In this document: positions 2,793-53,994 of the stretch, piece after piece | How the letters are laid out: each line of letters begins with the position of its first letter | Position numbering within the stretch: position 1 is the stretch's first letter | NCBI GenBank assembly: GCA_964437095.1 | Contig: CAYTFH010000001.1 | Span: forward strand, 119,072-183,071 | Direction: 5' to 3' | Source: an uncultured bacterium | GTDB lineage: Bacteria > Sysuimicrobiota > Sysuimicrobiia > Sysuimicrobiales > Sysuimicrobiaceae | Length of the DNA: 64,000 bases | Made by a program: the position numbers and the translations under genes | Notes under the pieces: generated by a model | Seen by the model: only the letters and a program-made list of their open reading frames with translations | Databases searched by the model: none | What the model was told of the DNA's origin: nothing

Positions 2793-3224
2793 TCACACAC
2801 CGGCCACCCACCCGTAGACCCAGGCCACCACCAACCCGTACACCGCGTGTCCCAGCACGATCCCCATGGCGGGGGCGGGGCCGGTGGGGAGTTCAGGGCG
2901 TCGCGGGTGCATGGCCCGCATGGCGGGCATGACGGCCGCCGCCAGGATCCCGTGCACCACGCCGAAGACCAAGCCCCAGCCCGGAGAGACCGTGCCGACG
3001 CCAGAGCGCCACAGCAACCCGTACACCGCCGTGAACACCACCCCCATCCCGAAGTGCAGCACCCCGCCCAGGGTCCTGGCCGCGGCGCCCTCGGGGACGA
3101 ACATGGTCCCCAGCGTCCCGAGCATGTCCATCCGCGGCATCCCCATGCTCGGTCCGAGGGCCATGAGGAGCGTCATGACCCCGGTCCCCACCAACCCGGC
3201 ACCCACCACCCCGCTCCAGGACAT
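2793..3224 (-). CDS. hypothetical integral membrane protein
   Basis: Strong SD (GGAGGTCGGGG) + ATG at 3224; about four predicted TM helices rich in G/A/V/L. Confidence 0.45.
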   Translation of the reverse strand: MSWSGVVGAGLVGTGVMTLLMALGPSMGMPRMDMLGTLGTMFVPEGAAARTLGGVLHFGMGVVFTAVYGLLWRSGVGTVSPGWGLVFGVVHGILAAAVMPAMRAMHPRRPELPTGPAPAMGIVLGHAVYGLVVAWVYGWVAGV

Positions 3225-20532: not shown

Positions 20533-21282
20533 TCACCCGCCGCGGCCCGACACCAGCGCCACTAGCCCCAGGCACACGGTGGCGCCTGCCACCCAGCCCC
20601 GCAAGCGCGCGGAGCTCACCTCCCGTACGGTGCGGGTGCCCAGGGGGACTGCCAGCACCGCGCCGCCGGTCACCGCCAGCAACAGGTCCCACCTCCACGC
20701 ACCGGGGAACCACCACGCGTAGCTGGCCACGGCGGCTAGGGAAACCACGGCTTCCGCCAGGTTGGTGATGGCCACCGCGGCTTTGGGTTCAAGGCCCGAG
20801 ACGATCTGCCCGGCCGCGATGAGGGGGCCGTACCCGCCGCCCGTGAGTCCTTTGTTCACCGAGGCCAGGGCACCCAGGGCCACCAGCCGCCGCCACGAAA
20901 AGGCCCGGGCGGCGGGGCCCAGCAGCAGCCACACGCCCAGGGCCACGATCATGCCGGCCATGTAGGCCCGCACCGCACCTTCACCCACCTGCCGGGCCAG
21001 CCAGGGGCCGGCCAGGCCGCCCGCGAGGCCCGCGGCCACCAGCACCGCGGCGACCCGGCAGTGCGCGGAGTCCCGGCTGAAGGAGGCGTTGCCGTTCGCG
21101 TGGTGGAACCGGGCGCCCACCAGGCCCGCCATTACCTGGGAGAGGAGGAGGGCAGGGACCACCTCGGGGAGCCGGTAGCCCGCGGCCAGCAACAGCGGGC
21201 CCAGGACCGTGCCGTAGCCCATCCCCAGGGCCGTGTCCAGAAACCCCGCGGCGAACGCCAGGCCCACCAGCACCAACAGCAC
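20533..21282 (-). CDS. TauE/SafE-family sulfite/anion exporter
   Basis: Eight TM helices with the two-fold repeat typical of TauE; SD GGTGAGGGAGGAG + GTG. Confidence 0.7.
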   Translation of the reverse strand: MLLVLVGLAFAAGFLDTALGMGYGTVLGPLLLAAGYRLPEVVPALLLSQVMAGLVGARFHHANGNASFSRDSAHCRVAAVLVAAGLAGGLAGPWLARQVGEGAVRAYMAGMIVALGVWLLLGPAARAFSWRRLVALGALASVNKGLTGGGYGPLIAAGQIVSGLEPKAAVAITNLAEAVVSLAAVASYAWWFPGAWRWDLLLAVTGGAVLAVPLGTRTVREVSSARLRGWVAGATVCLGLVALVSGRGG

Positions 21283-21295
21283 GCAGGCTCCTCCC

Positions 21296-22048
21296 TCACC
21301 GCACGCCCTCCGCAGCGCGCACCGATGCCGTCTGGTCGCACAGGTCCACCACCCGTCCCACCACCAGCGTGGCGGGGGGTTCGAGCTGTGCTTCGGCCAC
21401 CCGGGGCGCGATGGTGCGCAGCGTCCCTACCACTACCCGCTGGTCCGGCAACGTCCCCCGGGAGATCACGGCCGCGGGCAGGTCCGGGTCGGCTCCTGCC
21501 TCCACCAGCTGCGCCACCACGTAGGCCAGCCGCCGCAGGCCCATGAGCACCACCAGGGTGGGCATGCGCGCCAGGACCGGCCAGTCCACCGCGGGGGAGA
21601 GGTCGCACGACTGGCCCGTGACCACCGCGAAGGCGGAGGCGTACGCCCGGTGGGTCACGGGGATCTCCGCGGACGCGGGGACCGCCACCGCCGCGGTGAC
21701 CCCGGGGATCACCTCGTACGGTACGCCCGCAGCCCGCAGGGCCTCCACCTCCTCACCACCACGGCCGAACACGAAGGGATCGCCTCCCTTCAGCCGCACC
21801 ACGCGGAGGCCGCGGCGGGCCCGGTCCACCAAGAGCCGCACGATCTCTTCCTGGGGAGTGCGGGGGCCGGAAGGGTGCTTGCCCGCGAAGATCCTCTCGG
21901 CCCGGACGGGTGCTTCTGCCACCAACGCAGGGTGCACGAGCCGGTCGTACACCACCACGTCGGCGGTCCGCACCGCCCGGAGTCCCCGCACGGTGATAAG
22001 CTCGGGGTCTCCGGGCCCCGCACCCACCAGGAACACCTTGCCCGTCAC
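21296..22048 (-). CDS. cobA: uroporphyrinogen-III C-methyltransferase (SUMT)
   Basis: GKVFLVGAGPGDPELIT...LKGGDPFVFGRGGEE; GTG overlaps the sirC stop. Confidence 0.85.
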   Translation of the reverse strand: MTGKVFLVGAGPGDPELITVRGLRAVRTADVVVYDRLVHPALVAEAPVRAERIFAGKHPSGPRTPQEEIVRLLVDRARRGLRVVRLKGGDPFVFGRGGEEVEALRAAGVPYEVIPGVTAAVAVPASAEIPVTHRAYASAFAVVTGQSCDLSPAVDWPVLARMPTLVVLMGLRRLAYVVAQLVEAGADPDLPAAVISRGTLPDQRVVVGTLRTIAPRVAEAQLEPPATLVVGRVVDLCDQTASVRAAEGVR

Positions 22049-22674
22049 GCCTCCTCCGCCAGCTCCGCGACCCGCTGCCGAGCCCGGTCCACGTGTCCCG
22101 CCCGCAGATCGTCCAGGACGCCGGAGTCCAAGATCCGGTACCACAGCGCCCGGCGGCGGTTGAAGTCCGGCACCCGGCGGGCCAGCTGCTCCCGGACCTC
22201 ACCCGCCAGCTCCAGGAAGGCCGCGTGCTCCGGGCCCAGCTGGGCCGCGAACCGGTCCCGGAGCCGCACCGCGAGAGCCGGCGCCTTGCCCGAGGTGCAC
22301 ACGGCCACCACGAGGTCCCCGTCCCGGTGCACCGCTGGCGCGATGAAGCTACAGTGCGCGGGGTCGTCCACGGCGTTGACCCAGATCCGCCGCTGCTGCG
22401 CTTCCTGCCACACCGCGTGGTTGGTCTTTCGGTCCTCGGGTGCGGAGATGACCAGCCACGCGCCCTCCAGGTCGCCTGGGCGGTACGGGCGGGACAGCCA
22501 CTGCAGCTTGCCCTCTGCGGCCCACGCCCGCAGCCGTTCGGTCACCTGACCGCTCACCACCACCACCTCCGCCCCGCACTCCAGCAGGGCTGCTACCTTG
22601 GCTTCCGCCACCGGGCCGCCGCCCACCACCACGCACCGCCGGACGCGCAGGTCCACGAACAGCGGGTAGTACAC
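22045..22674 (-). CDS. sirC: precorrin-2 dehydrogenase / sirohydrochlorin ferrochelatase
   Basis: YYPLFVDLRVRRCVVVGGGPVAEAKV Rossmann N-terminus typical of CysG-N/SirC. Confidence 0.75.
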   Translation of the reverse strand: MYYPLFVDLRVRRCVVVGGGPVAEAKVAALLECGAEVVVVSGQVTERLRAWAAEGKLQWLSRPYRPGDLEGAWLVISAPEDRKTNHAVWQEAQQRRIWVNAVDDPAHCSFIAPAVHRDGDLVVAVCTSGKAPALAVRLRDRFAAQLGPEHAAFLELAGEVREQLARRVPDFNRRRALWYRILDSGVLDDLRAGHVDRARQRVAELAEEA

Positions 22675-22684
22675 GGCTAGACCA

Positions 22685-22721
22685 CCCCAACAATCGCTCA
22701 AGCGATCTTTGGGGACCCCGG
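22685..22721. repeat. 37-nt palindromic repeat element, copy 2 (intergenic hemD-sirC)
   Basis: CCCCAACAATCGC-TCAA-GCGATCTTTGGGGACCCCGG; near-identical to the element inside the FMN reductase gene. Confidence 0.6.
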
Positions 22722-22756
22722 TCCCTTCAGCCGCCAGGGTCTTCCCGCACACGCTC

Positions 22757-23563
22757 CTACTCCCGGGCCCTGACCTGGTAGGCTCGCAGGGCATCCACCA
22801 GGGGAGCCATCTTCGGGTGGTCCGGGCTCACCGCCACCCGCACCCCACAGGCCTCCACGGCCGCGCGGCTTGTGGGCCCCACCGCGGCCACCACCACTCT
22901 CGTGTTGAGGGCCTCCCGCAGCGCTGCCGTGAGCCCCTCGTGTTCGGCCACCGCGAACAGGTGCAGGACCTGGGGCCGGCTGGTGACCAGCAGCGCGTCC
23001 ACTCGTCCTTCCACCACCGCGTGCGCGGCTCGCCCCAGGGGGCCGACGTCCTGGGGGAGCGCCCACCGGTACGGAAGCGCCTCCACCGCCTCGGCGCCGC
23101 GGCGGGCCAGGTAGTCCCGCAGGGCCGGGTTGGGCTCCCCGTAGTGCTGCACCAACACCCGCCGGCCCTCCAGCGGGACCGTGTCCAGGGCGCGGCACAG
23201 CTCCGCGGTGGTGTGGGGGCTGGGTGCCTGCACCTGCGGCCGCACGCCCCAGCGGCCCAGCACCGCCACCGGCTTGGGGCCCCGCACGGCCACGGGGATC
23301 TCCCGCAGAGCCTGGACGAAGGCTTCACCCAAGCCCAAGGTCACCGCGGCCTCGTACAGCCGCTGCACCCCCACGCCCGTGAGGAACACCGCCCAGTCCA
23401 CCTCCCGGGAGCACAGGCGCTGCAGGGGCTGAGCCACTTCGGACGCCGGCACCGCCACCTCCTCCACCGCGGGCGCGCACACGGGCTCCCAGCCCTGCTG
23501 CCGCACCAGGTCCGCCAGGACCTGCGGCCAGCGCGACTCCAGGACCAGCACCGTCCAGCTCAC
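22757..23563 (-). CDS. hemD: uroporphyrinogen-III synthase
   Basis: HemD-like two-lobe sequence; GTG overlaps the cysC stop (GTGA). Confidence 0.7.
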   Translation of the reverse strand: MSWTVLVLESRWPQVLADLVRQQGWEPVCAPAVEEVAVPASEVAQPLQRLCSREVDWAVFLTGVGVQRLYEAAVTLGLGEAFVQALREIPVAVRGPKPVAVLGRWGVRPQVQAPSPHTTAELCRALDTVPLEGRRVLVQHYGEPNPALRDYLARRGAEAVEALPYRWALPQDVGPLGRAAHAVVEGRVDALLVTSRPQVLHLFAVAEHEGLTAALREALNTRVVVAAVGPTSRAAVEACGVRVAVSPDHPKMAPLVDALRAYQVRARE

Positions 23564-24576
23564 GCCTCTCCCGAGCCCGCCTGCACGTACCCGCGCTCCG
23601 CGAGCAACCGGAGGACCTGCGCCGCACCCTCCTCGGGCGCGGTGCGGTGGGTGTCCACCACCAAGTCGGGGGACTCGGGCTCCTCGTACGGGTCGCTCAC
23701 CCCGGTGAAGTTGGGCACCTCGCCCCGCAGGGCGCGGGCGTACAGCCCCTTGGGGTCCCGCTGGACCAGGACCTCCAGGGGGCATCGCACGTACACCTCC
23801 AGGAAGTCGCCCACCAGCTCCCGCGCCTGCGCCCGTGCCTCCCGGTATGGGGAGATGAGGGCGACCAGGACCACCACGCCGTGGCGCACCAGCAGCCCCG
23901 CCACGTACGCCACCCGCCGCACGTTCTCCAGCCGGTCCTCCCGGGAGAACCCCAAGCCCTTCGAGAAGTGGCGGCGGACTTCGTCGCCGTCCAGCACCTC
24001 CACCGGCACGCCCTGGCCGCGGAGGGCCTCCGCCACCCGGTGCGCCAGGGTACTCTTGCCCGCTCCGGAAAGCCCCGTGAGCCACACGCACACCCCGCGC
24101 GCGGCCCGGGGACTCCCCTCCGTGGACAGGCTCTCCACCTCCACCCCGTCCGCCCGCGCCGCGAGGGTGACCACCAGGCCGTCTGCCCGCAGCGCCACGG
24201 TGTAGTCGCCGAGGGTGCGGGCAGCCACCCGCACTCCCTCCAGCCGGCGGCCGCGCAAGGCCTGCAGGGCGCGGTTGGTGGCTTCCAGCCTCGCCCGCAG
24301 CGCCTGGCCCCGCGGCGTGTGCCACAGCACCTCCGTGAGCAGCCGCTCACCCTCCGCCCGGTGCCGGCGCCGCGCGCGGCCGGTCTGCAGGGAAAGGGCC
24401 ACCGCGGACTCCACCACGTCCACGAACTCCGTCGCGAGCTCCCCGCGGCGGACGAGCTCCGCCGCTTGCACCGCGCGCTGCTGCTGTGGGTCGGGGAGGA
24501 CCTGGGCCAACGCCAGGACCTCCTCCGCCACCAGCGCCGCGGACTCCGGGTCCAGCTGCAAGGGCAACTCCGTCAC
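23560..24576 (-). CDS. cysC: adenylylsulfate kinase with ~150-aa N-terminal extension of unknown function
   Basis: C-terminal 190 aa: VWLTGLSGAGKST...DGDEVR...SPYREAR APS kinase. GTG at 24576 overlaps the cysH TGA (GTGA). Confidence 0.75.
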   Translation of the reverse strand: MTELPLQLDPESAALVAEEVLALAQVLPDPQQQRAVQAAELVRRGELATEFVDVVESAVALSLQTGRARRRHRAEGERLLTEVLWHTPRGQALRARLEATNRALQALRGRRLEGVRVAARTLGDYTVALRADGLVVTLAARADGVEVESLSTEGSPRAARGVCVWLTGLSGAGKSTLAHRVAEALRGQGVPVEVLDGDEVRRHFSKGLGFSREDRLENVRRVAYVAGLLVRHGVVVLVALISPYREARAQARELVGDFLEVYVRCPLEVLVQRDPKGLYARALRGEVPNFTGVSDPYEEPESPDLVVDTHRTAPEEGAAQVLRLLAERGYVQAGSGEA

Positions 24577-25370
24577 CGCCGGACCTCCTCCACGGCGTGC
24601 CCCAGGATGGCGTGCGCCTCGTGCTCGAACCCACCGGTCTCGATGGGGCAGTGGATGCCGCACTCCTTGGGCGCGCCCACCTCCCACCACCACCGGCCCG
24701 CGCGGTCGTCCTCGCCGGGCTGGATGGGGCGCGTGCACGGGTCGCACCCGATGCTGGTGTACCCGTGCTCGTACAGGGGGTGGGTGGGGACCCCGTGGGT
24801 GCGCAGGTACTCCCACACCTCCTCCTTGGTCCAGTCCGCCAAGGGGTTGGCCTTGACAATGCCGTCGTGGTCGTGGTCCAGCTCCACCTTGCGGATGTTG
24901 GCCCGCGACGCCCACTGCTCCCGGCGCAGGCCCGTGATCCACGCGTCCAGCTGTTCCAGGCCGCGCACCAGGGGCCGGACCTTCCGGACCTGGCAGCACA
25001 GCAGCCGCAGGGGCACGGACTTGTAGAACAGGTTCACCCCGTGCCGCTGGACCATGGCCTCCACCTCCCGGTGGTCCGGGAACAGCACCTGGAAGCGTGC
25101 GTGGGGGTAGTGCTCCCGCACCTGGTCCAGGAAGGCGTAGGTGGCCTGGGGCAGCCGTCCGGTGTCCACGGTGAGCACCCGGACGTCCGGGCGGATCCGG
25201 GTGGCCATGTCCAGGATGGCCATCCCTTCCGCCTGCAAGGCGGTCACCACCGCCACTCGGTCGCCGAAGGTGTCCAGGGCCCAGGCGATGACCTCCTGGG
25301 GCTCCCGGTCATCGAGCTCCACCGCGATCTCGCCGATCTCCAGGTCGTCGAACACCACCGTCCGCGCCAT
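24573..25370 (-). CDS. cysH: phosphoadenosine phosphosulfate / APS reductase (thioredoxin-dependent, C-terminal Cys cluster)
   Basis: PAPS_reduct fold, C-terminal CC...ECGIHC cluster; strong SD GGAGGAGGGAGG + ATG. Confidence 0.85.
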   Translation of the reverse strand: MARTVVFDDLEIGEIAVELDDREPQEVIAWALDTFGDRVAVVTALQAEGMAILDMATRIRPDVRVLTVDTGRLPQATYAFLDQVREHYPHARFQVLFPDHREVEAMVQRHGVNLFYKSVPLRLLCCQVRKVRPLVRGLEQLDAWITGLRREQWASRANIRKVELDHDHDGIVKANPLADWTKEEVWEYLRTHGVPTHPLYEHGYTSIGCDPCTRPIQPGEDDRAGRWWWEVGAPKECGIHCPIETGGFEHEAHAILGHAVEEVRR

Positions 25371-25435
25371 GCCTCCCTCCTCCGCCTTGGACCATCCCGG
25401 TCGTGGTGCTTTCGGGCGGTTCTTCGGACCCGCTC

Positions 25436-27358
25436 CTAGCCCGCGCCTCCCGACAGGGCGGGCAGGATGGTGAGTTCCTCGCCGGGCCGCAGGGGCGCGT
25501 CCAGGCCTCCTAGGCCCCGCACGTCCTCCTCGCCCACGAACAGGTTGATGCTGGGGTGCACGCCGCCGTCCGGCGCCAGCACGTGGGCCACCAGCTCCGG
25601 GTACTGTCGCCTGAGCGCCTCCAGAGCCTCCCGCACCGTGCGGGCGTCCACCTCCACCCGGTCCGCGCCCCCGCTGTAGGGCAGCAGCATGCCGGGGATT
25701 CGCACCACCGGGCGGCGCGGCGTCTCCTCTTCCCGTACCGCCTCGCCCAGGGCCAGGGCCCGCAGCTGGTCGTCCGTGCGGGCGTCCACGAAGTCCCGGA
25801 AGGTGCAGCCACCCTCCCGCTGCGCCCGCTCCCGCAGCCAGCCCTCCACCAGCCGGCAGACCACCTCCGTGATCCGGTCCTCCGGGATGCGGCGCAAAAG
25901 GGGCTTCCCGATGGCGGCCCGGGTGCCCAACCCGCCTCGCAGGCACACGTCGTAGGCCTCCACCCGCACGCCCTTCTCCGGGTGCACCACGGTGGTGCCC
26001 TGCAGGCCGATGTCCCCCACCCAGTGGTGGGCGCAGGCGTGGGGGCAGCCGTCGGTGTAGATCCGCAGGTCCGCCACCGCTTCCCCGAAGCGCCGCTCGA
26101 GCTCCTCCAGGATCTCCTTGAGCTTGCCCTTGGTCTCCGCCACGGAGTAGTTGCAGAACCGGTGGTCGGTGCACGCGGTGGATCGGCCGTACACCGGGTT
26201 GCGGGAGGGGTCCAGCCCCATGCGGGCGAGCTCCCGGCGCACCTCCTGCACCCGCTCCTCGGGAACCCCCGTGACGATGAGGTTCTGCATGCGGGTGAAC
26301 CGCACGTCCCCTCCGAAGGACCCCACCAGCTCCCCCAGGGCCACCAGCTGGCCACCCGTGATCCAGCCCATGGGCACGGGCACGCCCACGTACACCAGCC
26401 CCGGCTGCTTCTGCGGGTGCACGCCCAAATGGTCGGTGTCGTGGGTGGGCTCCGGCGCACGGCCATCCGCCAGCCGCCGGCCCAGGCGGGCTTCCACCCG
26501 AGCCCGTACGCCCTCGGGGCCGTAGTCGTCCACCATGAACTTGATGCGGGCCTTGGCGCGGCTGAGGCGGTAGCGCAGGTCGTCCTGCCACGTATCCGTC
26601 ACCGCCCGCAGCACCTCCACCACGCCCTCCACGGGCTCTGCGGGCACGAACACCCCCAGATCCCGGCTCAGGCGGGGCGTGGCGGAAAGCCCCCCGCCCA
26701 CCCGCACCGCGAACCCGGGGACCCCGTCCAGCACCACGCCCACCAGGGCCACGTCGTGGATCTCCGGAGCGTTGCACTGGGCGGGGCAGGCGCTGATGGT
26801 GTACTTGTGCTTGCGGGGGAGGTTGCTGTAGGCGCGGTTGCCGTAGAAGAACCGCGCCACCGCTTCTACCACGGGCCGCACGTCGAACAGCTCCGCCCGG
26901 TCCACGCCCGCCACCGGGCAGCTGGTCACGTTGCGTACCGTATCCCCTTCCCCGCCCACGGTGGTGAGTCCCGTGGCCTGCACCGCGGCCAGCACCTCCG
27001 GCAGCTGCTCCAGCCGGACCCAGTGGAGCTGAATCCCCTGGCGGGTGGTGAGCTCGCCGTAGTTGCGCCCGTACCGCCGGGCGATCTCGCCCACCCCTAC
27101 CAGCTGCGCCGGGGTAATGCGGCCTCCGGGCACCTTGATGCGCACCATGAAGGTCCCCACCTTGGGCTTGTCGTGGGTGAGGCCCCACCAGTTGAGGCGC
27201 ACGATGTCCTCCTCCGGGATGGCCTCATACCCCCGCGCGATGAGGCTTGGGAGCTCGTCCACGATGTCCAGGGGGAACTTCTCCTGCTTGAGCCGCTCGA
27301 TGGAGTTCCGCTTCAGCACCAACTCCCAGGTGGGCTCCAAGGTCACCGTCTGTGCCAT
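25436..27358 (-). CDS. sir: ferredoxin-dependent sulfite reductase (NirA/SirA type) fused to C-terminal CysO/MoaD-like sulfur-carrier domain (ends ...SGGAG)
   Basis: Two NIR_SIR ferredoxin-like and 4Fe-4S/siroheme domains (TDGCPHACAHH). Final ~88 aa RIPGMLLPYSGGADRVEV...SINLFVGEEDVRGLGGLDAPLRPGEELTILPALSGG+AG resemble M. tuberculosis CysO. Confidence 0.8.
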   Translation of the reverse strand: MAQTVTLEPTWELVLKRNSIERLKQEKFPLDIVDELPSLIARGYEAIPEEDIVRLNWWGLTHDKPKVGTFMVRIKVPGGRITPAQLVGVGEIARRYGRNYGELTTRQGIQLHWVRLEQLPEVLAAVQATGLTTVGGEGDTVRNVTSCPVAGVDRAELFDVRPVVEAVARFFYGNRAYSNLPRKHKYTISACPAQCNAPEIHDVALVGVVLDGVPGFAVRVGGGLSATPRLSRDLGVFVPAEPVEGVVEVLRAVTDTWQDDLRYRLSRAKARIKFMVDDYGPEGVRARVEARLGRRLADGRAPEPTHDTDHLGVHPQKQPGLVYVGVPVPMGWITGGQLVALGELVGSFGGDVRFTRMQNLIVTGVPEERVQEVRRELARMGLDPSRNPVYGRSTACTDHRFCNYSVAETKGKLKEILEELERRFGEAVADLRIYTDGCPHACAHHWVGDIGLQGTTVVHPEKGVRVEAYDVCLRGGLGTRAAIGKPLLRRIPEDRITEVVCRLVEGWLRERAQREGGCTFRDFVDARTDDQLRALALGEAVREEETPRRPVVRIPGMLLPYSGGADRVEVDARTVREALEALRRQYPELVAHVLAPDGGVHPSINLFVGEEDVRGLGGLDAPLRPGEELTILPALSGGAG

Positions 27359-27373
27359 CCCCCTCCCCTCCCT

Positions 27374-28534
27374 TCAGCCGGCCTGCTCCGCGGGCGGGGC
27401 CGCGAAGTACGTCCGCAACACCTCCGCCACCTCGGGCCGCATCACCTGTGGGGGCGGCAGCTGGCCGCTTCGCAGGAGCTTGCGCACCCAGGTCCCGCTG
27501 GGGTTCACCCGCGCGTCCGCGGGGTGAGGGCAGCTGCGCTCGGTGGCCATGCCGTCGCACCGGCGGCAGTAGAACGCCTCCCCGAAGAACACCGGGGTAA
27601 TCCCCAGTTCGGCCGCGTCGAAGCGGTCGAAGATGCGGTGCGCCGCGTACGGGTCGTAGAACCCGCCCACGCCCGCGTGGTCCCGCCCGATGAGGATGTG
27701 GGTGCACCCGTAGTTCTTGCGGACCACCGCGTGGAACACCGCCTCCCGCGGCCCCGCGTAGCGCATGGCGGCGGGGAACACCGCCAGGAGCACGCGGTCC
27801 TTGGGGTAGTACAGGTCCACCAACACCTCGTACGCCCGCATGCGCACGTCCGCGGGCACGTCGTCCTTTTTGGTCTCCCCCACCAGGGGGTGCAGGAACA
27901 GCCCGTCCGTGGTCTCCAGGGCGACCTTGTGCAGGTACTCGTGGGCGCGGTGGATGGGGTTACGGGTCTGGAAGGCCGTCACCGTCCGCCACCCGGCCCG
28001 CTGGAACCGCTCCCGGGTCTGGGCTGGGTCCAGCTCCCGGTCCGCCCACGGACCCCGGGGCCGGTCCACCAGCCACACCGGCCCCGCCACGGCCCACGGG
28101 GACTCCTGCAGGAGCCGCGCCACGCCCGGGTGCGCAGGGTCCGTGGTGCCGAACACCCATTGCGCTTCCTCTTCCAGGTCCCGCCGGTAGACCTCCGTGA
28201 CCTCCACCACCGCCAGAAGACCCTGCCCCCGCACGGCCAGCCGGTCCCCGCGGCCGAGCTGCCGCGCGCGGTCCGCGGGCAGCTGCAGGGTCACGGGGAT
28301 GGTCCACGGCAGGCCTCCAGGCAGCCGCAGGGTGTACAGCACCGACCGGTACGTCTCCCGGTCCATGAAGCCCTCGAGCGGACTGTACGCACCGGTGGCC
28401 AGCAGGACCGCGTCCGCGGCCTCCTTGGCGCTGGTCAGCACGCACGGCAGCCGTTGCGCTTCCGCTCTCCATGCGTCCGCTTGTTTGCCATCCACCACCC
28501 GGTGCACCAAGCGACCCCCGTGGGGTGCGACCAT
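27374..28534 (-). CDS. sat: sulfate adenylyltransferase (ATP sulfurylase)
   Basis: QTRNPIHRAHE and GRDHAGVG motifs; SD GGGAGGTG + ATG. Confidence 0.9.
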   Translation of the reverse strand: MVAPHGGRLVHRVVDGKQADAWRAEAQRLPCVLTSAKEAADAVLLATGAYSPLEGFMDRETYRSVLYTLRLPGGLPWTIPVTLQLPADRARQLGRGDRLAVRGQGLLAVVEVTEVYRRDLEEEAQWVFGTTDPAHPGVARLLQESPWAVAGPVWLVDRPRGPWADRELDPAQTRERFQRAGWRTVTAFQTRNPIHRAHEYLHKVALETTDGLFLHPLVGETKKDDVPADVRMRAYEVLVDLYYPKDRVLLAVFPAAMRYAGPREAVFHAVVRKNYGCTHILIGRDHAGVGGFYDPYAAHRIFDRFDAAELGITPVFFGEAFYCRRCDGMATERSCPHPADARVNPSGTWVRKLLRSGQLPPPQVMRPEVAEVLRTYFAAPPAEQAG

Positions 28535-28725
28535 AGCACACCTCCCACGCGCTCGCCCATGCGCTGCGCGGCGCGTCGTTCGTCTTGGAACCTTGGCTAG
28601 GGAAAAACCGGAAGCCGCGGAAGGAGCCCCGCCCGGTTCAGGCCAGGGCTACCTCCCGCCGAGGACAGATGCACTGCCGAGGGCGGGCCAGCAGGAGCGG
28701 ACGTACGACTCCGGACTCCATGGCT

Positions 28726-28754
28726 TCGCGTGACACTTTAGCCCCGCGGACGTG
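28726..28754 (-). promoter_or_regulatory. sigma-A-like promoter TTGACG-N17-TAAAGT upstream of the sat operon (~190-nt leader)
   Basis: Read on the minus strand. Leader 28535-28719 contains a GGTTTTTCC tract after GC-rich sequence. Confidence 0.4.
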
Positions 28755-29086
28755 GCGCGTCAAGAGGGGAGGCGTCGGTCCGCGAAAGCACTTCAGCCCG
28801 CGGACCGCACAGCCCGGGCCCAGTCCCGCAGCGCGGCCAGCAACTCCCGCACCCGGGCGCGGGTGGCCTCGTCCACCAGGCGCCCCTGCGCGTCGAACTT
28901 GTCCCGGGCGTGGGTAACCAGGACCTCCGGACGGTGCAGCTGCCGGGCCTCCAGCGACGCCAGCACCTGCCGCAGGTGCAGCTGCGCCCGCAGCGTGCCC
29001 CAGGCCCCCATCGTTCGGAGCACATCCGGCCATCCCCCGCGCCCACGGGGACCGGCGTCGGACGTCGTACGACTTCTCCCTGCAAA

Positions 29087-29136
29087 CCGGGGTCCCCAAA
29101 AATCGCGCCAGCGATTTTTGGGGCGCTCTAGCGCCC
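29087..29136. repeat. palindromic repeat element, copy 1 (inside the FMN reductase gene)
   Basis: CCGGGGTCCCCAAAAATCGC-GCCA-GCGATTTTTGGGG plus adjacent GGGCGCTCTAGCGCCC palindrome; AT-rich core. Confidence 0.6.
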
Positions 29137-29566
29137 ATCACCGCCACGGGCTTGCCCCGGAAGGGGTTGTCCCCCGCGGGGCGGGTGGCCCAGTCCAGCG
29201 CGTTCTTCAGCACCCCCGGGAAGGACCAGTTGTACTCCGGGGTGACCACCAGCACCGCGTCCGCGTCGCGGATTTCGCGCTTGAAGGCCACCACCGCCTC
29301 CGGGAGCCCTCGCTGCTCCACGTCCCCGTCGTACAGGGGGATGCCCCTCAGGTCGAAGGCCACCACCTCCACGTCTTCGGGGGCCACCTCCGCCGCCGCC
29401 CGCAGCAAGGCGCGGTTGTAGGATCCCTCCCGCAGGCTGCCCGCGAACCCCAAGATCTTCACTGATCCCTCACGCACGCGTGCCCCCTTCCGATTCGGGT
29501 TTACGGCGCAGCAGTGTACGCGGCTCCGCCGGGCGCGTCAAACCCTCTTGACAATTCCACGAGCTC

Positions 29567-29584
29567 TGCCGTAAACAAACGGCA
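29567..29584 (+). promoter_or_regulatory. inverted repeat TGCCGT-AAACAA-ACGGCA overlapping a putative TTGACA(29548)-N18-TAAACA promoter upstream of nirA
   Basis: Perfect 6-bp inverted repeat with 6-nt spacer, read from sequence. Confidence 0.3.
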
Positions 29585-29727
29585 AGACCACGCAGTCCGT
29601 CTGGGCCCCGCAGTTCCCTCTTCCCTGCCCCGCCGCAGTCCACCCAATAGCCGCGGAGCTCTTTCCGGCCGCGTCGCCGTGGGAACCCCGTCGTTCCCGG
29701 ACACCCCATCCGGGAAAGGAGGTCACC

Positions 29728-31608
29728 ATGGCCGAAAACAGCTCGGCGCCCAACTTCGTGGAAAGCCTCAAGGCCGCCCGGGACGGGCTGGACGTGGGCG
29801 AGGACATCCCCCGCTACGCGCGTCTGGGCTGGCAGGCCATCCCCAAGGACGACGTGGAGCGGCTCAAGTGGTGGGGGGTCTTCCTCCGCCGCCAGAGCGA
29901 GGGGGAACCCGGGTACTTCATGCTCCGGATCCGCATCCCCAACGGTATCGCCACCGCCGCCCAGGCCCGGGAGATGGGCCGCCTCAGCCGCGACCTGGGT
30001 CGCGGGGTGCTGGACGTCACCACCCGGCAGCAGGTGCAGATGCGGTGGATCCGTATGGAGAACGTCCCGGAGGTCCTGGACCGGCTGCGGGGGGCGGGTC
30101 TCACGACCCTTCAGACGGGCATGGACAACGTGCGCAACGTGGTGGGCTGCCCCCTCGCAGGGCTGCTGTCCACCGAGCTCCTGGACGCCTCCCCGGTGGT
30201 GCGGGAGCTCACCGCTCGCATCGTGGGGAACCGCGCCTACACCAACCTGCCCCGGAAGTTCAACGTGACCGTCACCGGCTGCGTGCAGAACTGCACCCAC
30301 GCGGAGACCCAGGACCTCGCCCTGGTGCCCGCCACGCGATCCCACCGCGGGTACCGTCAGGTGGGGTTCAACGTCCTCGTGGGCGGCAAGATGGGCTCCG
30401 GCGGATACCGCGTGGCCTCCCCCTTGGACGTCTTCGTCACCGAGGGAGAGGCCGTGGAGCTGTGCGTGGCCGTGGTGGAGGTCTTCCGGGACTGGGGGCC
30501 GAGGGAAGCTCGCGGCCGGGCCCGCTTGAGCTTCCTGCTGGACGCCTGGGGGGTCAACCGGTTCCGGGAAGCCGTCCAGAGGCGCCTGGGCCGTCCCCTG
30601 CTACCGGCCGGGGAAGACGCCCGTCGACCCGCTGCGTGCGACCACCTGGGCGTGATCCGGCAGAAGGAGCCCGGGCTGTACGCGGTGGGCCTGCTGGTCC
30701 CCGTGGGCCGGCTCAGGGCTGAGCAGCTGCTGGAGCTAGCGCGCCTGGCGGAGGTGTACGGAGCGGGAGAAGTCCGGTTCACCACAGGCCAGAACGTGGT
30801 GCTGCCCCACGTGCCCGAAAGCCAGCTGCAGCGGCTCTTGGAAGAACCCCTGCTGCGCGAGCTCCGGCCCGACCCTCCGCCCGCGCTGCGCGGGCTGGTG
30901 AGCTGCACCGGCACGGACTACTGCAACTTGGCCCTGATCGACACCAAACGGCGTGCCCTGGACTTGAGCCGGAAGCTGGAACCCCGAATCCACCGCCCCG
31001 TCACCGTGCACTGGTCGGGATGTCCCGCGGGCTGCGGCAACCACGGGGTGGCGGACGTGGGGCTGGTGGGCAAGAGGGTCCGGGTGGACGGCCGGGTGGT
31101 GGAGGCGGTGGACGTGTACGTGGGCGGCTGTTCTGGCCCCGAGCCGCTGCCTGCCTTGAAGCTCCTGGAGGACGTGCCGTGCGACGCCCTGGAGCCCATC
31201 CTGGAGGCCCTGATGCGGTACGGCGACTTCGAGGGGCTGCGCGCGCAGCTGCGGGCCTGGCTCCCGGGAAAACTTCTTCGATCAGGGCCCGCACCGCTTC
31301 GCGGCCCCACCGTCCCCGTATCGGAGCTCCCCGACGGGAAGGGAGTCCGGGTGCGCCTGGGGGGCGAGGAGGTGGCGGTGTTCCGATGCAACGGGACGGT
31401 GTACGCGGTGCAGGACCGTTGCCCCCACGCCGGAGCCTCCCTGGCCGAAGGCGTGGTGGACGGTACGGAGGTGATCTGTCCCGAGCACGGCTACCGCTTC
31501 TGTCTGCGCACCGGGCGCGGGCTCACGGACCCGAGCCTCTCCGTCCGGACCTTTTTCGTGCGACGGGAAGGGGAAGCCGTGGTGGTGGAAGAGTCGGAGG
31601 AGGGTTGA
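29728..31608 (+). CDS. nirA: ferredoxin-nitrite reductase fused to C-terminal Rieske-type NirD small-subunit domain
   Basis: NIR_SIR domains and siroheme/4Fe-4S Cys (SCTGTDYC, SGCPAGC). C-terminal CPHAGASLAEG...CPEHGYRF Rieske motif. SD GGAAAGGAGG + ATG. Confidence 0.85.
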   Translation: MAENSSAPNFVESLKAARDGLDVGEDIPRYARLGWQAIPKDDVERLKWWGVFLRRQSEGEPGYFMLRIRIPNGIATAAQAREMGRLSRDLGRGVLDVTTRQQVQMRWIRMENVPEVLDRLRGAGLTTLQTGMDNVRNVVGCPLAGLLSTELLDASPVVRELTARIVGNRAYTNLPRKFNVTVTGCVQNCTHAETQDLALVPATRSHRGYRQVGFNVLVGGKMGSGGYRVASPLDVFVTEGEAVELCVAVVEVFRDWGPREARGRARLSFLLDAWGVNRFREAVQRRLGRPLLPAGEDARRPAACDHLGVIRQKEPGLYAVGLLVPVGRLRAEQLLELARLAEVYGAGEVRFTTGQNVVLPHVPESQLQRLLEEPLLRELRPDPPPALRGLVSCTGTDYCNLALIDTKRRALDLSRKLEPRIHRPVTVHWSGCPAGCGNHGVADVGLVGKRVRVDGRVVEAVDVYVGGCSGPEPLPALKLLEDVPCDALEPILEALMRYGDFEGLRAQLRAWLPGKLLRSGPAPLRGPTVPVSELPDGKGVRVRLGGEEVAVFRCNGTVYAVQDRCPHAGASLAEGVVDGTEVICPEHGYRFCLRTGRGLTDPSLSVRTFFVRREGEAVVVEESEEG

Positions 31609-41018: not shown

Positions 41019-41500
41019 AGGTACGCCAGCAGCCGGCCGCACGCTACCGCGGCCACCCACACCACCAGAGATACCGCCCCCGCCAGGCGGGCCGCCAGGG
41101 GAGGCCGGCCCACGTCCCAGGAGTCCACGGACCGGTACACGCCGCGGTGGAAGGCCCACACGTTCAGCCCGCCCGCGGCCACCAAACTCATCTTCACGGG
41201 GAACAGGGGGTTCTCCCACCACTGCGACGCGTGGGCGACGAACATGGGGATCCCGGTGCCCACCACCAGGACGAACCCGCGCCACGCCCACGGGAGGAGG
41301 TGCACCGCCAGCTTCCGGACGGGCACGTGAGGGGAAAGCCCCAGCAGCCGCAGGTCGAAGGCCACCGCGGACCCCACGAGCAGAACCACGCCCACCACGT
41401 GGCCCACCTCCACCGCGGGGTATGCCCACAGGGCCTGCCGCATCCACACCGCGAAGGGCGTGCGCTCCAACTCCGCGGCCCAGCCGGTGCCGTGGCTCAC
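41015..41500 (-). CDS. hypothetical integral membrane protein
   Basis: Five hydrophobic helices; GTG overlaps the stop of the upstream small secreted protein. Confidence 0.4.
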   Translation of the reverse strand: MSHGTGWAAELERTPFAVWMRQALWAYPAVEVGHVVGVVLLVGSAVAFDLRLLGLSPHVPVRKLAVHLLPWAWRGFVLVVGTGIPMFVAHASQWWENPLFPVKMSLVAAGGLNVWAFHRGVYRSVDSWDVGRPPLAARLAGAVSLVVWVAAVACGRLLAYL

Positions 41501-52299: not shown

Positions 52300-53070
52300 T
52301 CACGGTGCCGGGTGCACCACCGCCCGGTCCCGGAACCGCACGTCCACCACCGCCGCCCGTACCCCCCGGACGTGCAGGGCGCGGGCCACCTCCCGCGCCG
52401 CGGGCAGGCCCCACGCCAGGTCGCCCGCCAAGACCCGCACCACCAGCCCCTGCTGGGTCCCCACCGCGTAGTCCCCGCCCGGGAGCCACCGCGCCCACCG
52501 GATCTGGGCCCGTTCTCCTTCCGGGAGGGCTGCGAGTTCCGCCACCAGCTGCACCACCCCGGCCGAGGGAACCGCTTCCCCGGGCAGCACCCACGGCAGT
52601 GGAGGGGCGAAGACCACGGGCAGGTTCCACGGGCGGGAAGTCCTCTCCAGGACCACGCCCCTGCCGTCCACCAGGACCTGGGTGTGGTCCTGCAGGCGCA
52701 GCACCGCCCGAGGTGTCCGCTCCCAGACCCGCACCACCACCCGGGACGGCCACCGCACCTCCACCTGAGCTTCCTCCACCCACGGCCAGCGCAGCAGCCG
52801 CCTTCGGGCGTGTTCCGGATCCACCGACGCCAGGGGCACGCCCGGCGCGAGCCCTGCGGAGGCCAGCAGCCTCTGCGGGTCCAACGCGCGCGCGCCGTGC
52901 ACCTCCAGCTCCCGCACGGAGAGGGCGGAGGAGGCCGGCAGGCTCGCCACGGCGCACAGGGCGCTGGTGAGGGTCCAAAGCCGCAGCACCCGCACCCACG
53001 GCAGGACCCCGTCCTCCCGCGGGCCTCCGCCGGCGCCCCCGCGTGTGGGCAGGTTCCGCTCGGTACCCAC
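52300..53070 (-). CDS. ftsQ: cell division protein FtsQ/DivIB (POTRA)
   Basis: N-terminal TM helix then POTRA-like region; sits between murB and ftsA as in conserved dcw clusters. Confidence 0.7.
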   Translation of the reverse strand: MGTERNLPTRGGAGGGPREDGVLPWVRVLRLWTLTSALCAVASLPASSALSVRELEVHGARALDPQRLLASAGLAPGVPLASVDPEHARRRLLRWPWVEEAQVEVRWPSRVVVRVWERTPRAVLRLQDHTQVLVDGRGVVLERTSRPWNLPVVFAPPLPWVLPGEAVPSAGVVQLVAELAALPEGERAQIRWARWLPGGDYAVGTQQGLVVRVLAGDLAWGLPAAREVARALHVRGVRAAVVDVRFRDRAVVHPAP

Positions 53071-53994
53071 TCAGAACTCCCCCACCAGCTGCACTTCCAA
53101 CTCCAGCTCCACCTGGAAGGTCCGCCGCACCCGCTCCCGGATCCGTTCCACCAGGCGCAGCACGTCCTCCGCCCGCCCATCCCCCGTGTTCACCACGTAG
53201 TTGGCGTGCAGGGTGGACACCTCCACCCCGCCCTCCCGCATGCCCTTGGCCCCGCACAGCTCGATCAGCCGCCCCGCCGCGTCCCCCGGCGGGTTTCGGA
53301 ACACGCACCCGGAGGACGGGAGCTTTACGGGCTGCGTGGCGCCCCGCTGCTCCAGCCAGCGCTGGGTGCGCTCCAGGACCTCCTGCGCCGAAGCCGCCCC
53401 CAGCTCCAGCTCCACCTCCACCACCACGCCCGCTTCCCGCTGCAGCCTGCTGGTCCGGTACCCGAACCCCAGCGCCTCCGCGGGCCATCGCTCTTCTCCC
53501 CGGGGCCGCACCACCCGCACCGCCCGCACCACCTCCGCCAGGCTGTGGCCGTGGGCGCCCGCGTTCATCACCACGCCGCCGCCCACCGAGCCCGGAATCC
53601 CCGCGGCGAACTCCAACCCGGCGAGGCCCCGGCTGGCGGCCCGCAGGCTCAGCCTCGGCAGGCCCGCGCCCGCCTCCGCCACCACGCGGCTTCCGTCCCA
53701 CCGGACGCGGTCCAGCCCTCCCGCCACCTTCACCACCACCCCGCGCACGCCCCGGTCGGACACCAACACGTTGGAGCCGCGTCCCAGCACCACGAAGGGT
53801 TCTGCGCGCTCGTACAGCCACGCCGCCACCGCTCGCAGCTCGTCCCCGCTGCGCGGGACCACCAACACGTCCGCGGGGCCGCCGATGCGGAAGGTGGTGT
53901 GGCGGCGCAGGGGCTCACCGCACCGCACGTCGCGGCAGAGTCTACGCAGGGCCTGGGCCAAGCGTTCCACGGACGCGGACGCCGCGGCCTTCAC
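53071..53994 (-). CDS. murB: UDP-N-acetylenolpyruvoylglucosamine reductase
   Basis: FAD-binding TTFRIGGPAD...GRGSNVL...; C-terminal ...SGCVFRNP. Confidence 0.9.
   Translation of the reverse strand: MKAAASASVERLAQALRRLCRDVRCGEPLRRHTTFRIGGPADVLVVPRSGDELRAVAAWLYERAEPFVVLGRGSNVLVSDRGVRGVVVKVAGGLDRVRWDGSRVVAEAGAGLPRLSLRAASRGLAGLEFAAGIPGSVGGGVVMNAGAHGHSLAEVVRAVRVVRPRGEERWPAEALGFGYRTSRLQREAGVVVEVELELGAASAQEVLERTQRWLEQRGATQPVKLPSSGCVFRNPPGDAAGRLIELCGAKGMREGGVEVSTLHANYVVNTGDGRAEDVLRLVERIRERVRRTFQVELELEVQLVGEF

Follow-up and report, generated by a model that had tools for sequence, protein, structure and literature searches.

A short hairpin-bearing repeat, probably mobilised by an IS1182-family transposase, interrupts an FMN reductase gene in an uncultured bacterium

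Results

A 118-nt insert breaks an FMN reductase gene at a CTAG

In the stretch of DNA analysed here (64,000 nucleotides from an uncultured bacterium, hereafter the window), the minus strand carries a gene for an NADPH-dependent FMN reductase that is spread over two reading frames (Table 1). By comparison with an intact allele, 118 nt at 29010-29127 replace 3 nt, which makes the gene 115 nt longer on balance and throws it out of frame. Beyond the insert, the C-terminal part of the protein, GAWGTLRAQLHLRQV...SAG-stop, is encoded at 29009-28793. The homologues were assigned to Pfam FMN_red and Flavodoxin_2, and with the two joined gene halves as the query, thousands of NADPH-dependent FMN reductases were matched. 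All of the 11 closest orthologues, including those of 'bacterium HR32' and of one Armatimonadota MAG, carry VMGA-(S/T)TGxWGTLRAQ uninterrupted, and the position of the insert corresponds to a nearly invariant MGA-(S/T)TGxWGT loop. As every one of these orthologues lacks the segment, the possibility named in the preliminary description of this locus, that a lineage-specific insertion in the protein had been mistaken for a disruption, is refuted.

The best match (P0001, 96% identical) was found in the Logan assembly of run SRR11582170, a sister sample, in which the gene is intact (L018). The flanking DNA of the window and of this intact allele is 97.8-98.8% identical on both sides, and the sole difference is the insert. 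The empty site reads GTGATGGGCG-CTAG-CAC-GGGGGCC (also written GGGCG-CTAG-CACGGGGG), and the window reads GTGATGGGCG-CTAG-(118 nt)-GGGGGCC, the CTAG falling within GCT AGC, the codons of the reductase for Ala and Ser. The disruption by an insertion that had been proposed before is thus supported both by an existing empty allele and by the 11 orthologues without the segment. The octamers ATGGGCGC and ATGGGGGC (coding strand), which had been taken for a target-site duplication, are present, but ATGGGCGC already occurs in the intact allele, where TAGCACGGGGGCC comes next; the octamers were therefore rejected, and the target is the tetranucleotide CTAG.

Because the 115-nt net gain shifts the frame, the FMN reductase gene is a pseudogene in the window's strain. 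The intact gene persists in the strain of the sister sample, and the insertion is therefore recent and polymorphic among strains. The reading frame of the reductase crosses the element without a stop, and the 279-residue ORF at 28638-29477 is a chimera that passes through the element and then continues out of frame.

Table 1. Positions of the repeat copies, their junctions and the interrupted gene in the window.
Feature	Position	Strand	Remarks
MITE-like element, copy A	22677..22760	-	full length, about 84 nt; profile match 22678-22759
Hairpin of copy A	22685..22714		stem with one mismatch and one wobble pair
FMN reductase, C-terminal fragment	28793..29009	-	GAWGTLRAQ...SAG, stop; other frame than the N-terminal part
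Scarred far junction of copy B	29010..29017		ATCGTTCG on the plus strand; second CTAG and GTG (7 nt) expected
MITE-like element, copy B, body	29018..29127	+	110 nt; absent from the intact allele (L018)
Hairpin of copy B	29094..29123		perfect; 13-bp stem, A5/T5 core, 4-nt loop
CTAG target tetranucleotide, near junction of copy B	29128..29131		in the gene read as GCT AGx; from the empty-site comparison
FMN reductase, N-terminal fragment	29132..29477	-	residues 1 to about 116, VREGSVKILGF...KPVAVMGA; gene start 29477
Unoccupied CTAC target	41044..41047		orthologous site in related metagenome contigs filled, CTAG on both sides

The broken gene lies at the edge of a sulfate-assimilation and sirohaem cluster on the minus strand (20533-28534), for which Pfam calls from an identical Logan contig gave ATP sulfurylase (27374-28534), a NIR_SIR sulfite reductase, PAPS reductase, APS kinase, hemD, sirC, TP_methylase and TauE. 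On the plus strand, 29728-31608 encode a 626-residue NIR_SIR-type reductase, whose C-terminus resembles a Rieske/NirD-type domain (CPHAGASL...CPEHGYRF) and which is a paralogue of the minus-strand sulfite reductase; this paralogy accounts for the inverted repeats I1, I2 and I5 (26786-27225 vs 29834-30282). Two sigma-70-like promoter matches (9/12; 0.1 expected by shuffling) were found on the minus strand, one at 29513-29541, just upstream of the FMN reductase start, and the other at 28735-28763, between the FMN reductase stop and the ATP sulfurylase gene.

The hairpin of the insert recurs between hemD and sirC

The insert (copy B) contains the hairpin CCCCAAAAATCGC-GCCA-GCGATTTTTGGGG, and the single-stranded DNA fold of 29086-29138 has a free energy of -18.4 kcal/mol (z = -4.8). 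When the hairpin pattern was searched with three mismatches allowed, the window gave two matches, at 29094-29123 and 22685-22714, as against 0 in 100 shuffles. Supportively, the repeat finder paired 22676-22722 with 29086-29132 over 47 nt at 85% complementarity (repeat I3). The palindrome of the insert and its second copy between hemD and sirC, both pointed out previously, were hereby confirmed, the second copy proving longer than described and of full length (copy A). On the minus strand, copy A reads GTAG-GAGCGTGTGCGGG...hairpin...TGGT-CTAG, and it fits exactly between the stop codon of hemD, contained in the flanking GTAG, and the probable GTG start of sirC at 22674, two bases past the other flanking CTAG. 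A gene call on the identical Logan contig placed the sirC start at a GTG inside copy A (22674-22752), adding 27 codons from the element, and the start supported by homology (VYYPLFVDL) is the one at 22674.

The element belongs to a dispersed family with one conserved hairpin end

When species-representative genomes were scanned with a loose hairpin pattern, one Armatimonadota MAG and 8 bacterium HR32 contigs proved to carry the element, and the same pattern matched at least 120 stretches of metagenomes of hot-spring type. After orientation and removal of duplicates, 125 unique copies remained among the matches listed, from metagenomes, HR32 and Armatimonadota MAGs, so that the additional copies anticipated in the preliminary description do exist. 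The host lineage of the family is thermophilic bacteria related to 'bacterium HR32' and the Armatimonadota MAGs, with at least 8 copies in the fragmented HR32 MAG and 2 in the window.

An 85-nt consensus was derived from 76 standard copies among the matches listed and reads CtAG-GAGCgTGTCCcgGAAAa-(variable, ~20 nt)-GACCGGGGT-CCCCAAAAATCGC-gca-GCGATTTTTGGGG-TGGT-CtAG. It consists of a left end, GAGC(G/C)TGTCCCGGAAAAAC, which equals the inverted repeat at the right terminus of an insertion sequence (IS) of the IS1182 family, described below; a variable middle; the conserved GACCGGGGT with the 13-bp hairpin CCCCAAAAATCGC-N3/4-GCGATTTTTGGGG; and a short conserved right end, TGGT. Among the copies listed, conservation is 90% or more at both ends and in the hairpin, and the middle is free. 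The two ends appear unlike each other: when GAGCGTGTCCCGG of the left end was compared with ACCACCCCAAAAA, the reverse complement of the right end, no similarity was seen in register, and 8 of 16 positions agreed with a 4-nt shift. The element is non-coding, short even against the limit of about 300 bp for bacterial MITEs (consensus 85 nt, copy B 110-118 nt), and too short to encode a transposase. RNAalifold, applied to 48 copies, gave no structure besides the main hairpin and an outer stem of 4 bp; the covariation was uninformative, in part since the stem had been fixed by the search pattern.

With a profile built from the standard copies, 220 elements were found in 1.11 Mb of fetched loci, and in the window the profile gave two matches, copy A at full length and copy B in part. 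The copies are often stacked head to tail with one common CTAG. In a rare symmetric form (L113), the hairpin has an IS-type repeat on either side. Hairpin-only units flanked by CTAG occur in L024 (5032), L010 and L140, those of L024 and L010 having the form CTAGACCA-hairpin-TGGTCTAG; hairpin-less units resemble deletions between the GGGGT repeats that flank the hairpin. As a conjecture, an exchange across the palindrome could yield the symmetric and the hairpin-only forms. In a crude test of coding frames, 2 of the 69 evaluable copies among the matches listed were genic; a genic position such as that of copy B is thus unusual for this mostly intergenic family, which fits a recent insertion. 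The intervals of 0.7-2.9 kb between left and right ends of elements contained housekeeping genes (pgk/tpiA, lexA, RNase Y, ndk and others) and no transposase. At L076 1494-2597, between two copies of the short element, an ORF fragment judged by eye to resemble an IS21-family transposase was noticed.

Copy B is atypical and its far junction is scarred

The family profile matches copy B over 29084-29131 only, i.e. its right 47 nt, and no match to its left 70 nt was obtained by BLAST against all fetched loci. The body of copy B runs from a diverged left end, GAGCACATCCGG... at 29018, to a right end, ...GGGGCGCT at 29127. Its left part, starting with GGAGCACATCCGG, aligns loosely to the left end of the family and includes GGGGACCGGCGTC, which agrees with GGGGACCGGGGTC of the family in 12 of 13 nt; about 33 nt of extra sequence come after this, and the interior also holds a second GACCGGCGTC motif. 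The near end is unique in having GGGG-CGCT where the family has TGGT, and it is this change that gives rise to the small palindrome GGGCGC-TCTA-GCGCCC at 29121-29136; the second palindrome noted earlier is therefore real and spans the junction between element and gene. As judged from its sequence, copy B is an atypical member of its repeat family.

At the far junction, the gene strand has the 8 nt CGAACGAT where 7 (CTAGCAC) were expected, and the second CTAG is missing. With the expected junction, ...GCTC-CTAG-CAC, the gain would be 114 nt, or 38 residues in frame. Three independent Logan assemblies reproduce 28996-29115 exactly, the far junction included. These window-identical contigs, from runs SRR11582145, 147 and 148, all begin at 29115 inside the hairpin, because repeated sequence interrupts short-read assembly.

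The flanking tetranucleotide is at least partly a duplicated target

Of 82 copies among the matches listed, 30 had CTAG at either side. The flanks also agreed in some copies without CTAG: in three of these they were CTCG, and in a single copy each CTAC, CTTC, CTCA and CCAG. The same variant on both sides indicates that the tetranucleotide is at least partly a duplicated target and not element sequence. When the flank variants were counted by position, both sides agreed in 0 of 4 at position 1, 1 of 8 at position 2, 5 of 10 at position 3 and 4 of 5 at position 4; agreement at positions 3 and 4 and almost none at positions 1 and 2 would be compatible with a duplication of 2-4 bp. A pure 2-bp TA duplication of the IS630 type was tried as a candidate and is disfavoured by the matched variants at flank position 4. 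Among the right flanks of the family in the matches listed, the degenerate forms CCAG (5) and CTGG (4) recur; very-short-patch-type repair would be expected to turn CTAG into these, which is an idea only.

The duplications that the preliminary description had anticipated at other copies were accordingly found, as CTAG or as matched variants on both sides, and two pairs of filled and empty sites are now available. At the FMN reductase site the empty form has one CTAG. At the second site, 41044-41047, the window is empty and reads GCACG-CTAC-CGCGG, and two orthologous VAPR01 contigs (L097, L068) read GCACG-CTAG-(full element)-CTAG-GGTCG, both terminating inside their element. In addition, one copy is nested in an older copy, with CGAG on both sides. 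An intergenic stretch of the window at about 52990-53075 aligns to the left part of the element at an orthologous site in L081 (flanks 84% identical) and may be a decayed, hairpin-less remnant, which the family profile does not detect.

The window holds 25 CTAG sites in 64 kb, about six-fold fewer than the 158 expected from base composition (for comparison, GATC occurs 199 times and GTAC 269 times), so that the GCT AGC of the reductase was among a small number of targets on offer.

The element has one terminal repeat in common with an IS1182-family insertion sequence

An orphan left end led to a 1.57-kb IS at L045 953-2524, bounded as CTAG, GAGCCTGTCC...GGACAGGCTC, CTAG, also written as CTAG, GAGCCTGTCCAAGAAATCC...GGATTTCCGAGACAGGCTC, CTAG. 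It contains one ORF of 454 residues with the Pfam domains DDE_Tnp_1, DUF772 and DDE_Tnp_1_6, which matched the NCBIfam model NF033551 (IS1182 family) with 397.9 bits against a cut-off of 270. Homologues of this transposase are very numerous, and two of them are named 'IS1182 family transposase [Armatimonadota bacterium]'. Seven more contigs, including L140, L141 and L145-147, have the same IS inverted repeats and CTAG flanks. In L145-147, the right repeat of the IS, GAGCCTGTCCCGGAAAAAC, agrees in 22 of 23 nt with the left end of the short-element consensus, and this agreement is limited to that one end. The right end of the element (hairpin and TGGT) could only loosely be aligned to the left repeat of the IS and its subterminal hairpin, AAATCCCTGC-NNN-GCAGGGATT.

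The IS copies of L145-147 come from Logan runs SRR11582149, 150 and 164, of the same run series as the window-identical contigs and the intact allele, and one HR32 contig breaks off in this IS left end, beside a short element. The window has no transposase gene, and in a tblastn search of the loci fetched first the L045 transposase matched L045 only. Co-occurrence of the IS1182-family IS with the short element was shown for samples and not for a single genome. Three of the flanked IS copies (L045 2521-2655; L140 at about 3040-3110; L145, downstream of the IS) have a hairpin element directly next to their right end, with a common CTAG, and CTAGs that arise at the ends of elements seem to serve again as targets. 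A 4-bp duplication is on record for ISPse1, an IS1182-family element of Paracoccus (PMC3281130). In the papers searched, a strict CTAG preference and stacking at common CTAGs were not found described for the IS1182 family, and the repeat family itself was not found in the literature on IS1182 with CTAG or MITEs or on MITEs of Armatimonadetes.

Discussion

The insertion in the FMN reductase gene, the dispersed family, its CTAG flanks, the end in common with an IS and the empty sites are probably best explained if the insert is a copy of a non-autonomous, MITE-like family that was moved in trans by an IS1182-family transposase and landed on the CTAG of the gene. According to this explanation, an IS1182-family DDE transposase supplied in trans would move the short element, staggered cuts would be made at CTAG-like sites with the tetranucleotide duplicated in part or whole, and copy B would have landed on the CTAG of the Ala-Ser codons GCT AGC, thereby breaking the reductase. 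The element resembles IS1182-family ISs and IS-derived bacterial MITEs: its left end equals the terminal repeat of the IS, the flanking tetranucleotide is the same, and the family is short, non-coding, multi-copy and insertion-polymorphic. In contrast to the IS, however, the common 85-nt form has a single IS-like end, the other being a hairpin followed by TGGT, so mobilisation by the transposase would also entail recognition of this hairpin-bearing right end, both of which we infer.

These asymmetric ends weaken the explanation, since a DDE transposase normally needs two matching ends, and the unique left 70 nt of copy B together with its missing second CTAG also count against it, as do flank variants that match at positions 3 and 4 but not at position 1, the lack of a transposase gene in the window, and a co-occurrence with the IS that was seen for samples only. 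An enzyme other than the IS1182-family transposase might instead move the family by recognising the hairpin end, in which case the IS likeness would reflect the origin of the element or a co-targeting of CTAG. The asymmetry itself, the conservation of the TGGT end and the hairpin at 90% or more, and the CTAG-flanked hairpin-only units all speak for such an enzyme. We nevertheless regard it as rather unlikely, because no other candidate enzyme was seen near the copies, the hairpin-only units are few and, like the symmetric form of L113, explicable by exchange across the palindrome, and the left end corresponds to the IS repeat nearly throughout with the same CTAG beside it. A Y1 (HUH) transposase such as RAYT, acting on a REP or REPIN palindrome or on an IS200/IS605-derived element, is a far weaker candidate and very improbable. 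The family does share with REP/REPIN sequences its abundance as short, mostly intergenic palindromes with a strong hairpin near one end, and with IS200/IS605-derived PATEs the subterminal hairpin and a specific tetranucleotide at the junctions, but co-varying flanks together with a single CTAG at the empty site indicate that the target was duplicated, and Y1 elements leave no such duplication. Furthermore, the conserved hairpin stands at one end only and is headed by GGGGT and not by a GTAG-type head, and the left end is the terminal repeat of a DDE IS. Between 10 inverted or close pairs of copies, inspected by eye and not by HMM scan, no Y1 or RAYT ORF was seen, which leaves the cognate IS200/IS605 TnpA or RAYT that had been proposed at the outset unsupported. 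Of the earlier view that the insert is a small non-autonomous mobile element of REP or MITE kind, the mobile, MITE-like part therefore stands, as a dispersed family, whereas the REP-like part does not, the left end being an IS1182-family DDE repeat.

Like the Rickettsia palindromic elements (RPE), copy B is a palindromic repeat inside a coding gene with the frame open through it, and with an unscarred junction the insertion would have stayed in frame, so that a tolerated protein insertion with the gene still working might be envisaged; this is highly improbable given that the real gain is 115 nt and puts the conserved C-terminal 72 residues out of frame, that the same junction recurs in three further assemblies, and that the insert sits within the nearly invariant loop. 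The rarity of genic copies (2/69, by the crude test) is a further difference from RPE. That contigs were falsely joined through the repeated hairpin can hardly be believed: the Logan contigs of three runs do all break in it at 29115, but the flanks are the two halves of one gene meeting exactly at the CTAG of the intact allele, which a chance join would not produce, and the far junction was reproduced independently. Just as little credence is left for a fixed structured RNA or a terminator, in spite of the stable hairpin and of the fact that copy A lies inside an operon, with hemD on one side and sirC on the other. Mobility is shown by the filled and empty sites, covariation is not informative, an Rfam search of 22000-30000 gave no match at E <= 1, and in a terminator scan neither hairpin was terminator-like, with no T-run after the stem.

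Among other small dispersed repeats, the Correia elements of Neisseria and the MITEs of IS630/Tc1 type have a TA-centred target and sometimes disrupt genes or are co-transcribed with them, and IS630 prefers CTAG and duplicates TA. The present family differs from these in that its partner is an IS1182-family enzyme of the DDE_Tnp_1 type and its ends do not appear to be mutual inverted repeats. It is possible, though we think it doubtful, that the 85-nt form represents a MITE of a separate kind, in which a canonical IS1182-type end is paired with a hairpin end. If so, the IS1182-family DDE transposase, or another enzyme, would recognise a structured end that is not a repeat, and the hairpin would drive an exchange between copies that yields symmetric and hairpin-only forms, and would favour stacking at common CTAGs. 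Otherwise, this is an ordinary case of an IS-derived MITE disrupting a gene.

For the uncultured thermophilic lineage concerned, the finding means a recently active mobile element and a natural knock-out polymorphism. The hairpin repeat explains breaks of short-read assemblies in these genomes, and it is a trap for annotation, as gene callers extend sirC into copy A and read the 279-residue chimeric ORF through copy B. To our knowledge, the mechanism of the IS1182 transposase family has been little studied, and the short element and the IS offer a defined pair for this family, in which the asymmetric ends pose a small question.
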